40,015 nt of DNA from a virus. The notes below the pieces were generated by a model, which was given only the letters and a program-made list of their open reading frames with translations, was not told the origin of the DNA and ran no database searches. The number at the start of each line of letters is the position of its first letter. Position 1 is the stretch's first letter. A program made the position numbers and the translations under genes. This document shows positions 105-7,831 of the stretch, piece by piece. The stretch covers positions 1 through 40,015 of the IMG/VR virus record IMGVR_UViG_3300045988_093525; one strand, 5' to 3'.

Positions 105-149
105 TTGACATCATAAAGTCTTGCGTGGTCTGACATCATTTTGACATCA
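105..149 (+). promoter_or_regulatory. Three direct copies of (T)TGACATCA: putative arm-type integrase binding sites (P' arm)
   Basis: TTGACATCA at 105-113, TGACATCA at 131-138, TTGACATCA at 141-149. All are in the same orientation. The same 9-mer occurs twice near attR (39845-39864). Confidence 0.6.
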
Positions 150-1220
150 GAATATTTTAGAGATTCGTTCTACGATGTCATCTTCCATTTTAGGTGTCAC
201 ATGTGAGTAGGTATCCATCGTTTCTTGAAATGATGCGTGCCCTAGACGTTCTTGTATGGCTTTCATATTGGCTCCATTTTCGATGAGAAGTGTGGCATGG
301 GTATGTCTAGTACCATGCATAGTAAAAGCGGGCTTACCGATTAAACTGGCGTATTTCTTACATAGCTTGCTGACTTCATCAGGGCAGCGAGGAGCGCCTT
401 TTATGCCAGGGAATACAAGGTTGTTATTAATCCAGTTCATGGTTTTAATTCTGCGCTTGTCTATGACTGTTTTATGCTTCATAAGCTCCTGGAGTGTTTC
501 TGTATCAATGGCAATTATCCGTTTTGAGGATGTGGTCTTGGTTGTATTGGATATAACTGCCGTAGATCCGATTTTGAGGGCTGTTTGTGAAATGGATATA
601 GTTGATTTTTTGAAATCGATATCCGACCATCGCAATCCTAATAATTCAGAGCGCCGCATACCTGTTGCAAATGCTAATTTAAATAGCGCATGATGTTCTG
701 TATTTGATATATTGGATAAGAAGTCTTTTACTTCATCTGCAGCTAACGTTACCATATGCCGAACTTTAACCTGCTTTGGCCTATCTATGTTTTTCATATA
801 GTTCTTAGGGATGATGTCATCTTTTACCGCCTGCTCTAATATGGAGCCTAGAATTGTCATGGTATATGATATAGTCCTTGATGACAATCCATCCATTGAT
901 TCAAAGACATACCGTAATGTATTAGGTTTAATTTCGGCTAACTTTACGCCACCGATTTTATCTCTGATATAGCGATTGATAATTCCTGTATAGCTTTGAT
1001 ATGTGGCAGGGGTTATAGTCTTTTCCTTTAGATTCAACCATATATTAATCCAGGTGTTTAATGAAATAGTATCATCGAAATTAGCACATGCTTGATTAGT
1101 ATTTACGTATTTCTCCATAGCTTCTATGGCAGCTTTTCTGGTGGTGCCATAAAAGAATTTACGCTTACCGTTGATGGTTTTCGATACTTGGTATCGTCCA
1201 TCAGCTCGTTTTTTAGCCAT
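147..1220 (-). CDS. int: Tyrosine-type site-specific integrase
   Basis: 357 aa from ATG 1220 (AAGGA RBS upstream). The track start at 1271 lies inside the terminator hairpin. Catalytic signatures: ATGMRRSELLGLRW, HGTRHTHATLL (HxxR), LGHASFQETMDTYSHV (Tyr). The gene is adjacent to attL. Confidence 0.93.
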   Translation of the reverse strand: MAKKRADGRYQVSKTINGKRKFFYGTTRKAAIEAMEKYVNTNQACANFDDTISLNTWINIWLNLKEKTITPATYQSYTGIINRYIRDKIGGVKLAEIKPNTLRYVFESMDGLSSRTISYTMTILGSILEQAVKDDIIPKNYMKNIDRPKQVKVRHMVTLAADEVKDFLSNISNTEHHALFKLAFATGMRRSELLGLRWSDIDFKKSTISISQTALKIGSTAVISNTTKTTSSKRIIAIDTETLQELMKHKTVIDKRRIKTMNWINNNLVFPGIKGAPRCPDEVSKLCKKYASLIGKPAFTMHGTRHTHATLLIENGANMKAIQERLGHASFQETMDTYSHVTPKMEDDIVERISKIF

Positions 1221-1237: not shown

Positions 1238-1337
1238 TAAAAAAAGATGAGGTCTTGTTCCATAAGAACAAGACCTCATCTTTAGTTGCGGCTAAACCGC
1301 TTATAATGATTTTAGTTTGGGGCTAAACCCCTTTGTT
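1238..1337 (-). ncRNA. Candidate ~100-nt structured RNA (int leader/attenuator or stand-alone sRNA) with two covarying hairpins
   Basis: It has its own sigma70-like promoter (1343-1371) and its own terminator (1239-1283). It contains GGGGUUUAGCCCC (1319-1331) and GCGGUUUAGCCGC (1288-1300). These sit inside ~23-nt imperfect direct repeats 31 nt apart; the loop is identical and the stem changes are compensatory. Confidence 0.4.
1239..1283 (-). terminator. Strong intrinsic terminator (minus-strand sense) immediately upstream of the int RBS
   Basis: Perfect 18-bp inverted repeat AAAGATGAGGTCTTGTTC (1243-1260) / GAACAAGACCTCATCTTT (1266-1283) with a 5-nt loop. On the minus strand it is followed by a U7 run (A-run 1239-1245 on +). 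Confidence 0.85.
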
Positions 1338-1342
1338 CTTAC

Positions 1343-1371
1343 ATTATAGAATAGATGTTTAAAAAAATCAA
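1343..1371 (-). promoter_or_regulatory. Sigma70-like promoter on the minus strand (-35 TTGATT, 17 bp, -10 TATAAT)
   Basis: + strand aatcaa at 1366-1371 and attata at 1343-1348 with a 17-nt spacer. It lies just downstream of the stop of the 1396-2139 gene. Confidence 0.6.
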
Positions 1372-1395: not shown

Positions 1396-2139
1396 TTACT
1401 TTATATTGTATAACGCTTTTATAACTGCTCGAATTTTATCAGTAGCCTGTTTATCTACTCGCATATCATATAGTGCATCTTTATGGCACCTAGGATTTTG
1501 TATGCGTATTTTACTTACAGTCCTAATTTGAGAGACGATAGCAACCGTGCCTGCGTTTAACCGTGAAACTTCTTCCATAATTATATTGTGTTTAGTAATT
1601 AGGGCATTCGCTTCATCTAGCTGTTTTTCAAAGCGTTTAACATCGCTAGCTGTTAACGTCTTTTTATCAGTAGTTTCGAATTCCTTCACGTAGTTTTCAC
1701 CTTGGTCTAACATCTTGCCGGACCTATTCAGCAAGACTGTAAATAATTCTGTTCCCAAATATACATCTGATTTATATAATTTACTAGGGCTCTCTTTATT
1801 AGGCTTTAAAGACCTTAGAGGGACGACAGTGACTGTGCTGTTTTTAGCATTACTTGGTGCCAGTACTATAGCATAATGCAGGCCACCAAACTCAGACCCT
1901 ATGCCGAAACCGAAGTCAACTTTAACTATATCGCCAGGTTTAAATTGTGGAAAATATTTCGGATTAAAAGTTTCTTCTTGCTTTATATATCTTAAATAAT
2001 TTCGCAGCCAATAATAGAGTAGGGCCGCTTTATGTTGGTCTGCAGCTAGTATATTTTTTAAGAACGTACTTATGCTACTCGCAAGCTCGGCTATTTTCGA
2101 CAATAAAGCCCCTTTGTTTTCTGGCTTTTTTAGATCCAT
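1396..2139 (-). CDS. Atypical MazF/PemK-fold protein (N-terminal extension plus ~85-aa insertion splitting the fold)
   Basis: 247 aa, AAGGAGG RBS 7 nt upstream of ATG 2139. GDIVKVDFGFGIGSEFGGLHYAIVL...VTVVPLRS and GTVAIVSQIRTVSKIRI...ATDKIRAVIKAL match the two halves of EndoA/MazF (GDVYFADL..GSEQGGVRP.., ..LLEQIRTIDKQRL..DKVDEAL). The conserved Arg-Pro after GG is His-Tyr here. Confidence 0.7.
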   Translation of the reverse strand: MDLKKPENKGALLSKIAELASSISTFLKNILAADQHKAALLYYWLRNYLRYIKQEETFNPKYFPQFKPGDIVKVDFGFGIGSEFGGLHYAIVLAPSNAKNSTVTVVPLRSLKPNKESPSKLYKSDVYLGTELFTVLLNRSGKMLDQGENYVKEFETTDKKTLTASDVKRFEKQLDEANALITKHNIIMEEVSRLNAGTVAIVSQIRTVSKIRIQNPRCHKDALYDMRVDKQATDKIRAVIKALYNIK

Positions 2140-6172: not shown

Positions 6173-7831
6173 GTGGAGATTGTATCCAGTACCTATATTC
6201 ACAAAATGTTCGATAGCGTAATCCTAGAGGCTCCTTACGGTGCGGAGTATACAACTATCTACCATATCGACTGTGGGTTTACGTTTGGAGGTAGCTGGCA
6301 ACGTAGATATTCATATCAAAATGGATATGTTACCGGTTCAAAATACTATACCTGTCCAAATTGTCGAGCTTCCTCTAATCCGTATGATCATAAAATTTAC
6401 TTTTCTATAAACGATGAGAGCGTATACCCTGTATCGACCTATGTTGAGGTTATCAATTACAAGCATTTCCTGGATTTGAAGATTCGATATCAAGCTATCC
6501 AGCTTTTCTTTGATGGCAAAAAAAATGACTTAGGGATGTGTACAGAAACATTACGATTTGACTTCAAAAAGCGTAAGGCGACATTTATTGATAGATTTAG
6601 AATCCATCATGAATTGACTGTTGATTATATCCGTGAAAACGAGATTATGCCGGTACTGAAATTCTTTGGCGATTCATACGCCATGACAGATTTTAACCGG
6701 AAGTATTTAAACAAAACATTTAAGACGTTACGTCTAATGTTTGAAAAACGGTTGAAGGAAACTTACGGATATGGAACAAAGGATGTATATGTAGCACCTG
6801 GCGCTACAGAAGAAAACGGCTACCATTTTACGATGCTACTCAATATGATTCTGAAGCTATCGGCACCTGATATGCCTAGTATTGTTAGCTTAATGAAACA
6901 ATATATGTATTGGACTAATGCTTACTGCTTATATCGATATACAAATATTCCTTTTGATGACGATGTGTTAGTGGCTACAAGAAAAGGTATGAACTTTCAA
7001 GCAGCGCTTAGACAATCATATAAGGCTCCTAACAGTAGAGCCTTGCGAAAACGTATGGTTGATGATCCGTTAAGCGTATACATGTCAGATGTATTAAATC
7101 TATTTAGTGATGAAAATTGCAGGCGCACTATTCTTACATTAAAGCGTACTAGAGCTAATGACACAGATCCATATTTTGGTAAAGCTCATAATGCTAATGA
7201 TGTACGTAAGGCGATGAGGCTAAAAAGCCCACATGCAACGTTTATGTGGCAACAACTAATTAAACGGTGCGGTGAACCTACTATATTGCGATGGCTACTA
7301 AGTGAGAATATTCGTGATATAGAAGACTGTGTGGATATGCATGCAAAACTCGAACCAAAATATCAAGAGGCATTATGGAAGAAACGATTCAAGTTGAAGA
7401 ACTTCCATGACGAAGTAATCAACATATTCAACAAGCAGGAATATGGAGATGTAATATTGCCTGCTCAACCTCAATTACAAGCTGATATGAATGGGATGCA
7501 CTTTATGGTGCCAAAGACTGCAGCTGATTTAATGACATATGGAAAGCGATTGAAGAACTGTGTAGGTTCATATCGTGACCGTGTTATTCAAGGGCAAGCA
7601 GCGATTGTGGTTGTCACGGATGATGACATGAATCCTATTGCATGCTTAGAACTAGCCACTGGTAATAAGGTTAAAAAGGGTCAACCTAAATTTAATCATC
7701 TAGTACAAGCGAAGTTATTCGCGAATGCACAACTAAAAAAAGACAATAAAATTCACTCTACAGTGATGAAATGGGCCAATCGTTTAAAAATCGAACCTCA
7801 TACCATTGATGTGGACGCTAATGTTGTATAG
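6173..7831 (+). CDS. PcfJ-like protein
   Basis: 552 aa, GTG start after AAGGGGG. The C-terminal YGKRLKNCVGSYRDRVIQGQAAIVVV...ACLEL resembles the PcfJ-domain core (x-NCV-x-x-Y...G...I). An N-terminal CPNC motif is present. Confidence 0.5.
   Translation: MEIVSSTYIHKMFDSVILEAPYGAEYTTIYHIDCGFTFGGSWQRRYSYQNGYVTGSKYYTCPNCRASSNPYDHKIYFSINDESVYPVSTYVEVINYKHFLDLKIRYQAIQLFFDGKKNDLGMCTETLRFDFKKRKATFIDRFRIHHELTVDYIRENEIMPVLKFFGDSYAMTDFNRKYLNKTFKTLRLMFEKRLKETYGYGTKDVYVAPGATEENGYHFTMLLNMILKLSAPDMPSIVSLMKQYMYWTNAYCLYRYTNIPFDDDVLVATRKGMNFQAALRQSYKAPNSRALRKRMVDDPLSVYMSDVLNLFSDENCRRTILTLKRTRANDTDPYFGKAHNANDVRKAMRLKSPHATFMWQQLIKRCGEPTILRWLLSENIRDIEDCVDMHAKLEPKYQEALWKKRFKLKNFHDEVINIFNKQEYGDVILPAQPQLQADMNGMHFMVPKTAADLMTYGKRLKNCVGSYRDRVIQGQAAIVVVTDDDMNPIACLELATGNKVKKGQPKFNHLVQAKLFANAQLKKDNKIHSTVMKWANRLKIEPHTIDVDANVV

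Follow-up and report, generated by a model that had tools for sequence, protein, structure and literature searches.

ToxN, AbiQ and CptN, toxins found in type III toxin-antitoxin systems, adopt the Kid/MazF fold, and their inhibitors are repeat RNAs (PMC5086642, PMC3401426). Here we describe a locus in which a gene encoding a MazF-like protein of 247 amino acids (aa) is followed by a short RNA cassette, comprised of a promoter, two small hairpins and an intrinsic terminator. It is located in the viral sequence IMGVR_UViG_3300045988_093525 of the IMG/VR database, of which a stretch of 40,015 nucleotides (nt) was analysed (referred to below as the window), and it precedes a tyrosine integrase gene (int). 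A first-pass annotation, made from the sequence alone, had offered two options for the cassette: an attenuator leader of int, or a stand-alone RNA of ~100 nt connected with the MazF-fold gene. Comparison with related loci strongly supports the second option, through the linkage of the RNA to the toxin gene, the lack of a protein partner among these loci, and covariation within the RNA.

The cassette is a real structured RNA gene, found behind a single family of MazF-like genes in plasmids and prophages from a wide range of Gram-positive-type bacteria. It probably encodes an RNA antitoxin that has not been described before, as opposed to an element controlling the integrase. With moderate confidence, we interpret the locus as a toxin-antitoxin module that resembles type III but has its gene order reversed, in which the small structured RNA is the dedicated partner, and most likely the antitoxin, of the MazF-like protein. 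Five features, taken together, make a toxin-RNA pair the best explanation: the linkage, the lack of a conserved partner protein, a promoter and a terminator that are both strong, the covariation in the RNA and the MazF fold of the protein.

Organization of the RNA cassette

All coordinates given without a locus label refer to the window, and the cassette is read on its minus strand. The stop codon of the 247-aa open reading frame (ORF) (1398-1396) is followed, after 24 nt, by a near-consensus promoter (1371-1343), in which the -35 box TTGATT (1371-1366) and the -10 box TATAAT (1348-1343) are separated by a 17-nt spacer and match the consensus at 10 of 12 positions. The last base of the -10 box together with the sequence GTAAGAACA constitutes a leader segment (1343-1334), which is complementary to the top of the terminator (1261-1270). 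Sequence inspection and folding place hairpin 1 (GGGG-UUUAG-CCCC) at 1331-1319, followed by the tail AAACUAAA (in DNA, AAACTAAA; 1318-1311), and hairpin 2 (GCGG-UUUAG-CCGC) at 1300-1288, followed by the tail AACUAAA (1287-1281), which overlaps the foot of the terminator stem. The two units formed in this way (1331-1311 and 1300-1281) start exactly 31 nt apart. The terminator has a stem of 19 pairs (1283-1243), a 3-nt loop and a run of seven U residues ending at 1239; the top of its 5′ arm and its loop are the bases that pair with the leader.

These elements had been noticed in the first-pass annotation, and the promoter, both repeats with their UUUAG loops and AACUAAA tails, and the terminator were all found at the places assigned to them. 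The terminator stem is one pair longer than the 18 bp reported, and the T-run lies 18 nt, instead of 20, from the int start codon. Two corrections concern the hairpins and their tails. Each hairpin, described as a 4-bp stem with a 5-nt loop, can alternatively be drawn with a stem of 5 bp, in which a U-G pair closes a loop of 3 nt. The UUUAG loop is complementary to the CUAAA portion of the tail in the window. A loop-tail pseudoknot was nevertheless rejected as a candidate structure: the loops of relatives (TTAAG, TTCAG or TTTAC) have changed, and their tails show no compensation.

The repeat core GGTTTAGCCNCAA occurs twice in the 40-kb window, both times within the cassette, where 0.13 copies would be expected by chance. 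The predicted folding energy of the 116-nt stretch is -46.9 kcal/mol, compared with -20.7 kcal/mol in shuffled sequences (z = -8.4), a difference contributed mostly by the terminator. It is therefore mainly the cross-locus comparison, and not this single sequence, that excludes chance. Because the interval from the stop codon of the toxin gene to the promoter of the RNA contains no separate terminator, the mRNA of the toxin must extend to the shared one; a single terminator ends the small RNA and the toxin mRNA alike.

Linkage of the cassette to the toxin gene

Homologues of the 247-aa protein (27-100% identity) were examined in 160 loci, i.e. 80 genome loci and 80 viral-contig loci of IMG/VR, of which 131 are non-redundant (individual loci are designated by L-numbers). 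They originate from Veillonella, Lachnospiraceae, Clostridium, Streptococcus and other genera, as well as from Staphylococcus phages and a Bacillus plasmid. Inspection by eye revealed the cassette (promoter, one or two small GC hairpins, terminator) a few tens of nucleotides or less 3′ of the toxin gene in ~125 of the 131 non-redundant loci. Intact toxin genes without the RNA are rare: the exceptions are the distant homologues of L056 and L076, besides which the genes of L048 and L055 are damaged. A promoter of the sigma-70 type matching the consensus at 10 or more of 12 positions is present at the corresponding place in 100 of the 131 loci, often in the perfect form TTGACA-17-TATAAT, which is also that of the relatives L003 and L111.

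The same picture was obtained with a strict automatic definition (a promoter, a terminator 35-125 nt beyond it and at least one GC hairpin between them): such an arrangement follows 80 of 130 toxin genes, compared with 3 of 518 control ORFs of the same loci, and at least two hairpins are present after 62 toxin genes and after none of the control ORFs. A covariance model (R1), built from 29 Lachnospiraceae-type sequences, yielded 40 matches in 735 kb, all of them directly downstream of a toxin gene and on the same strand. Since R1 misses the divergent RNA version of the window itself, the homology of the two RNA types rests on their position, their architecture and the homology of the toxins. 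A pattern scan of viral contigs for the window-type hairpin gave 88 matches, which are mostly due to chance (59 lie in TnpB-like coding sequence).

The gene located beyond the cassette, as assigned by iterative hidden Markov model searches, encodes a recombinase of the tyrosine type in 64 loci and one of the large serine type in 16 (confirmed with Pfam for one of these), while the product is another one in 45; many of the genes of the last group are convergent, and they are often host genes. The large serine recombinase genes lie 105-900 nt from the cassette. The upstream neighbour varies as well (XRE regulator, ImmA, lipoprotein or zinc-ribbon protein), and no conserved protein partner or candidate protein antitoxin was found among the loci compared, either upstream or downstream. 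With neighbours varying on both sides, the RNA should be assigned to the MazF-like gene and not to int, and the cassette accompanies this protein family in different phyla.

Deposited phage genomes contain the module as well, namely that of Streptococcus phage Javan166 and that of the phage-77-related Staphylococcus phage IME1361_01. It was also identified in the 16.5-kb rolling-circle plasmid pSX01705-2 of B. subtilis (L270, 1444-2250), where it adjoins rep, with no integrase nearby. The plasmid homologue has 199 aa and lacks a helical hairpin that is inserted in the window protein (see below); it is followed by a promoter, an RNA and a terminator, the RNA being longer (~150 nt, with several hairpins). 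The downstream sequence of a locus labelled Streptomyces sp. (L080) is identical to that of pSX01705-2, and this contig may be a contaminant.

In one V. parvula-type relative (L246, 11560-11760) the toxin gene has been cut to ~9 codons, with …CTAAAGAAGCCAGAAAACAAG joined to the RNA promoter. The RNA gene has been retained between a zinc-ribbon gene and a serine recombinase gene, and its hairpin 2 is degenerating (GCGGTTTAACCAC). Loss of the toxin with retention of the RNA supports the direction of dependence that is expected of an antitoxin.

A Lachnospiraceae-type fold with no PemK-like gene nearby was observed at 6090-6200 of L258 (and also in L250, L253, L256 and L257). It consists of an enclosing helix (TCTCAAG/CTTGAGA), the hairpin GCCG-TTTAC-CGGC, the sequence AAGACA and a second hairpin, and it follows an ORF of 165 aa that Pfam does not match and precedes a gene of the HD/dGTPase-like kind (6431-7771). 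An extended -10 box lies well upstream of the helix; the whole fold is therefore predicted to be transcribed there. This orphan RNA could be a phage-borne antitoxin mimic.

The region of the terminator is also conserved in sequence. In many loci (e.g. L009, L013, L024, L126 and L270), whose toxins are only 30-45% identical, the terminators are often almost identical in sequence (AGACCUCGUAGAAAUACGAGGUCU), with UUUUACGUU after them; even the Bacillus plasmid carries TTTTTACGTT past the terminator stem. Such conservation exceeds the need of a plain terminator. Between the module terminator and int of Streptococcus phage Javan166 (L269, 2484-2570, minus strand), on the opposite strand, there is a match to the Rfam family Spy779816, a small RNA family of S. 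pyogenes (76 bits; gathering score 67). Many Lachnospiraceae loci contain a GC-rich hairpin at the equivalent position (e.g. ...CCCCCGGTGCTACCAACACCGAGGG...). The element at this position may be a separate convergent small RNA or a terminator ahead of int.

Structural conservation of the RNA

Two sets of aligned sequences were used in the analysis of base pairing: 11 of the Veillonella type (A2) and 29 of the Lachnospiraceae type (A3). In A2, 95% of the cells are paired and 10 pairs have changed on both sides. Hairpin 1, hairpin 2 and the 10-bp helix between the leader and the terminator top (1343-1334 with 1270-1261) are each 100% paired, and 3 of the 10 pairs of this helix have changed on both sides. 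In A3, the paired cells amount to 90% and 13 of 17 pairs have changed on both sides; pairing reaches 100% in hairpin 1 (all three counted pairs of which are compensated), 99% in hairpin 2 and 83% in an enclosing helix, P1. None of 500 shuffles reached the observed score in either set. When the 3′ partners were slid by 1-3 columns as a control, only 30-50% of cells were paired overall (39-50% in A2).

The compensatory exchanges in A2 include GGGG/CCCC to GAGG/CCUC in hairpin 1, and GCGG/CCGC to GCGA/UCGC (L111) or GUGGC/GCCAC (L003) in hairpin 2. In the leader, UAAGAAC is replaced by AUAGGAAC and AUAGAGUAAC, the partner sequences changing along with it. The long-range pairing was also recovered by an alignment-free test, in which a 14-mer (the final 4 nt of the -10 box plus the 10 nt after it) was paired with the 3′ part of a locus: the energy was -9.05 kcal/mol within its own locus and -5.80 kcal/mol with other loci (Wilcoxon p = 5e-10). 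These results point to both hairpins and the long-range helix as being under structural selection. The conservation and covariation of the region in relatives, on which the first-pass annotation had made its proposal depend, are borne out by them and by the inspection of the 131 loci.

Some single-stranded parts are conserved in sequence, above all the A-rich tail that follows each hairpin. The first tail is nearly invariant in A2, and in other Negativicutes-type loci the tail A(A/C)CUAA(A/G) follows both hairpins. Ahead of each hairpin there is a segment containing ACA. In most groups these segments read AAAACA and AAGACA/AGGACA; the group of the window has AACAAAG and UUACAAG, and in the window itself the second ACA is mutated to AUA. 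The two hairpin units, which are alike in the window, are unlike in many relatives.

The long-range helix takes its 5′ strand partly from the -10 box and partly from the 7-10 nt beyond it. Given the usual distance from a -10 box to the start of transcription, from which the start site is inferred, transcripts of the internal promoter would lack this strand, or most of it. Two RNA forms are implied: a closed fold, present in the 3′ untranslated region (UTR) of the toxin mRNA, and an open two-hairpin RNA, transcribed in excess from the internal promoter.

The MazF-like protein

The putative toxin gene (1396..2139, minus strand) encodes a protein that matches the Pfam family PemK_toxin (PF02452) with an E-value of 2.9e-9, above the curated cut-off, with the match covering the N-terminal half of the family only. 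A profile of 25 homologues hits the solved MazF structures 7bxy, 4hke and 4mzm, and the first two are matched by the N-terminal as well as the C-terminal half of the barrel, with residues 69-114 aligned to MazF 4-51 and residues 184-231 to MazF 58-105. An AlphaFold2 model (predicted local distance difference test score 89.9) shows a MazF barrel with a helical hairpin at the N-terminus (~6-56) and a second one, at ~131-193, which is inserted into the barrel and splits it; altogether, there are ~130 helical residues more than in MazF. In Foldseek searches with this model, the top matches were the MazF proteins of S. aureus (the best), B. subtilis, M. tuberculosis and E. coli (E ~5e-5, target-normalised template modelling score ~0.8), while the type III toxin CptN (4rmo) was matched with an E-value of 0.34 only. 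The invariant residues of the family (E83, G85, G86, H88, P107, L108, S110, S209, K210 and R212) cluster in the RNA-binding and catalytic segments of MazF. The 247-aa protein is thus a true MazF homologue with helical additions.

At 50% identity, the family comprises at least 367 clusters (E <= 1e-30), or 987 clusters (E <= 1e-10). Copies identical to the protein of the window come from human oral metagenomes, and the nearest named genome is that of Veillonella parvula (62% protein identity). The protein matches phrog_1412 of the PHROGs database (3e-51), which is labelled 'antitoxin mazE-like'. The same name is given in RefSeq phage records (e.g. NC_005356.1 and NC_013195.1) to this protein family, which has a MazF/PemK toxin fold. 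The label finds no support in the data of this analysis, and it looks like a propagated annotation error.

Genomic context in the window

The genes upstream of the cassette, all on the minus strand, encode an XRE-type repressor (2476-2877) and an ImmA-like M78 peptidase (2176-2460); the 247-aa ORF is the next gene, 36 nt further on. From this gene order and the short gap, it is most likely co-transcribed with the lysogeny operon.

The int gene (147..1220, minus strand, with its ATG at 1220) encodes a tyrosine integrase (Pfam Phage_integrase, 1e-30). There is no promoter-like site between the terminator (1243) and the int ATG (1220), where 18 nt separate the T-run from the start codon; transcription of int must therefore cross the cassette terminator, and in the window the source of the read-through can only be the RNA promoter or the lysogeny operon. 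Nevertheless, int is a neighbour of the module and lies outside it. Its ribosome-binding site, AAGGA, begins ~6 nt past the T-run (in the interval 1221-1243). In the closest relatives (L001 and L106-L110), which carry a serine recombinase gene instead, the spacing between terminator and gene is equally tight; in the window and these relatives, the recombinase start codon is found 18-25 nt past the T-run.

The window starts inside the 3′ end of a plus-strand transfer RNA (tRNA) gene (...GGTTCAAGTCCCTCCAACCGCACCA), which ends near base 53 and is followed by a terminator-like hairpin of 17 bp at 63-100. ARAGORN does not report this gene because the start of the window truncates it. Prophages usually integrate at the 3′ end of a tRNA gene, and the one located beside int is probably the attachment site here. 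Arm-type binding sites of the integrase were considered as an explanation of the repeats and rejected: the attachment core is ~1.1 kb distant, beyond int, and the element tracks the toxin gene, not int.

Proposed mechanism and rival explanations

In the mechanism that we propose, the toxin gene would be transcribed together with the prophage repressor operon, and the transcript would reach the shared terminator, so that each toxin mRNA would carry the RNA in its 3′ UTR. There, a long-range helix (leader with terminator loop in the window, P1 in Lachnospiraceae) would close the two hairpins into a compact fold. The strong internal promoter would add further copies of the two-hairpin RNA, keeping the RNA always in excess over the toxin. 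The RNA may bind the MazF-like dimer directly and block its ribonuclease (RNase) activity, each hairpin with its A-rich tail (and possibly the preceding ACA segment) acting as a pseudo-substrate for one half of the RNA-binding groove. A collapse of transcription, caused e.g. by phage infection or by loss of the prophage or plasmid, would lead to decay of the RNA and release of the toxin. The toxicity of the protein, its direct binding to the RNA, its neutralisation by the RNA, RNA processing, the transcription start site and the biological role are all inferred.

Several observations weigh against this interpretation. The gene order is opposite to that of every described type III family. The RNA contains only two units, which are often dissimilar in relatives, and some loci have a single hairpin (L148) or a different, longer RNA (L270); it is therefore a structured RNA, as opposed to an array of tandem repeats. 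The fold occurs once with no toxin gene (L258). The arginine R25 (B. subtilis numbering) is the catalytic residue of MazF; in the profile alignment it is replaced by the invariant His88, which leaves RNase activity and toxicity uncertain. An internal regulator could reside in the helical insertions of the protein, and PADLOC has no model for this protein. Finally, the long-range helix shows that the 3′ UTR form is itself under selection, which would fit a purely RNA-level role too.

This last point leads to the rival that the cassette is a 3′ UTR device acting at the RNA level only, which would set the stability or the 3′ end of the toxin mRNA; the short RNA, lacking the leader, would compete in trans for the terminator partner, in a type I-like manner and with no protein-RNA complex. 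Such a device is consistent with the lack of a separate terminator after the toxin gene, and above all with a covarying helix built from bases that are expected only in read-through transcripts, which makes it a serious rival. We consider it unlikely: pairing in cis would beat pairing in trans, and the sequence conservation of the single-stranded loops, tails and AAGACA/AGGACA linker suggests recognition by a protein. As for the type I systems, the RNA and the toxin gene share one strand, the RNA lies outside the coding sequence, and complementarity is present to the leader in the 3′ UTR. Classical antisense action on the ribosome-binding region of the toxin is disfavoured, as pairing of the RNA with the toxin initiation region showed no same-locus excess (-17.5 kcal/mol within the same locus and -20.0 kcal/mol across loci) in a sample of only 21 loci.

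A further possibility is that the protein is not a toxin restrained by RNA: it may be inhibited by its own insertions or be a non-toxic RNA binder, with the RNA serving as its substrate, guide or sensor, e.g. in an anti-phage effector armed by the RNA, or through processing of the RNA to regulate lysogeny. The ~130 extra helical residues, the replacement of the catalytic Arg, the orphan fold beside an HD/dGTPase-like gene and the PHROGs label (itself lacking evidence) could be taken in this sense. We regard it as quite improbable, since the variant of the Bacillus plasmid still has a partner RNA despite having no inserted helical hairpin, the loss of the toxin with retention of the RNA in L246 is what an antitoxin predicts, and the module occupies a site at which accessory (moron) and defence genes are usual in prophages. 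Still less credit can be given to the other option of the first-pass annotation, in which the cassette is the leader of int and a protein binding the twin hairpins governs read-through of the terminator. The part of it that stands is that int has no promoter of its own here, a situation shared by the closest relatives, with their recombinase genes at the same short distance from the T-run. The part that fails is the linkage to the regulated gene, which is not conserved: the cassette also occurs with serine recombinases and with the 45 non-recombinase neighbours, at varying distances, the plasmid copy adjoins rep, and both the R1 matches and the strict scan single out toxin genes. Moreover, it is the terminator's loop or flank, rather than the foot of the stem, that pairs with the leader, which provides no obvious antiterminator. 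An attenuator of int is therefore very improbable.

The type III-like module with reversed gene order is thus the interpretation that we prefer. More tentatively, we suggest that these loci may represent a large new family of protein-RNA toxin-antitoxin or abortive-infection modules, in which a MazF homologue with helical RNA-docking domains would be held by a two-hairpin RNA, instead of MazE, the RNA existing in closed and open forms. This family might form a bridge between type II MazEF and type III systems, with the orphan RNAs (as in L258) acting as anti-defence mimics.

If the RNA is an antitoxin, then toxins of the MazF family, the textbook type II toxins, may also be controlled by RNA, and 'orphan' PemK genes with no MazE would be explained. 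Type III-like control would then be far commoner in prophages of Firmicutes and Negativicutes than the 3-4 described families suggest, and the int-repressor junction would carry a candidate defence or addiction module. The pair would also be a compact RNA-protein complex for structural work. The protein family occurs in well-studied temperate phages of Staphylococcus aureus and Streptococcus, where it is annotated as 'hypothetical' or, probably wrongly, as 'antitoxin mazE-like'. The dual-transcript design, with a long-range helix predicted in the read-through mRNA only, poses a new regulatory question.

Comparison with known systems

In the literature searches, no MazF/PemK toxin was found to be described together with an RNA antitoxin or RNA partner. 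The pemK RNA motif (RF02913), which was defined by bioinformatics, was reportedly named by Weinberg et al. in 2017 for its association with pemK-family genes in Firmicutes; the motif is present in Rfam 15. The RF02913 model of Rfam 15 gave no match at E <= 10 in the window element or in L013, and none at the gathering score or at E <= 1 in 31 homologous loci. Nothing in the window reached the gathering score of any Rfam 15 model. At E <= 10, the region showed weak sub-gathering matches to microRNA and small RNA models, mostly driven by the terminator, and related loci behaved likewise. A match of 22.5 bits to RF02634 (Enterococcus EF3314_EF3315) in L013 was rejected as weak, since it covers only the segment before the terminator and the terminator itself.

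RNA antitoxins with toxins other than ToxN, some of them prophage-encoded, are found in the AvcID system and in the AbiF-associated RNA of Clostridioides difficile prophages (PMC10511110; bioRxiv 10.1101/2025.04.15.648962). The toxin folds (deaminase and AbiF, respectively), the RNAs and the gene arrangements are all unlike those of the window.

With the type II systems MazEF and PemIK, the locus shares a toxin of family PF02452, both barrel halves of which align to solved MazF structures. It differs from them in the absence of a MazE/PemI-like gene and of any conserved protein neighbour among the loci compared (the upstream gene of the window encodes the ImmA-like M78 peptidase), so that the adjacent, co-transcribed protein antitoxin typical of type II is not found. 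The protein is further distinguished by its N-terminal helical hairpin, its helical insertion of ~60 residues and the invariant His in place of the catalytic Arg.

The closest parallel is provided by the type III systems ToxIN, AbiQ/antiQ, CptIN and TenpIN. The toxin of the window is a MazF/PemK homologue with no homology to the described families ToxN/AbiQ, CptN and TenpN (there is no PADLOC match, and CptN is matched by Foldseek only at the E-value given above). The RNA gene of type III lies upstream, as a tandem array with a leaky terminator before the toxin, whereas the RNA of the window lies downstream and has its own promoter; the non-canonical order of toxin followed by RNA, pointed out in the first-pass annotation, is in fact the reverse of type III. 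In place of 2-6 near-identical repeats of 34-45 nt, there are two small hairpins and a long-range helix. Further features of type III are direct inhibition of the toxin by the bound RNA, processing of the RNA precursor by the toxin and a cyclic assembly of RNA and protein. What is shared is the association of a Kid/MazF-fold protein with a small, constitutive, repeat-containing RNA and a strong terminator, the lack of a protein antitoxin, the location in prophages and plasmids at sites of defence genes, and a design that would provide the RNA in excess over the toxin.

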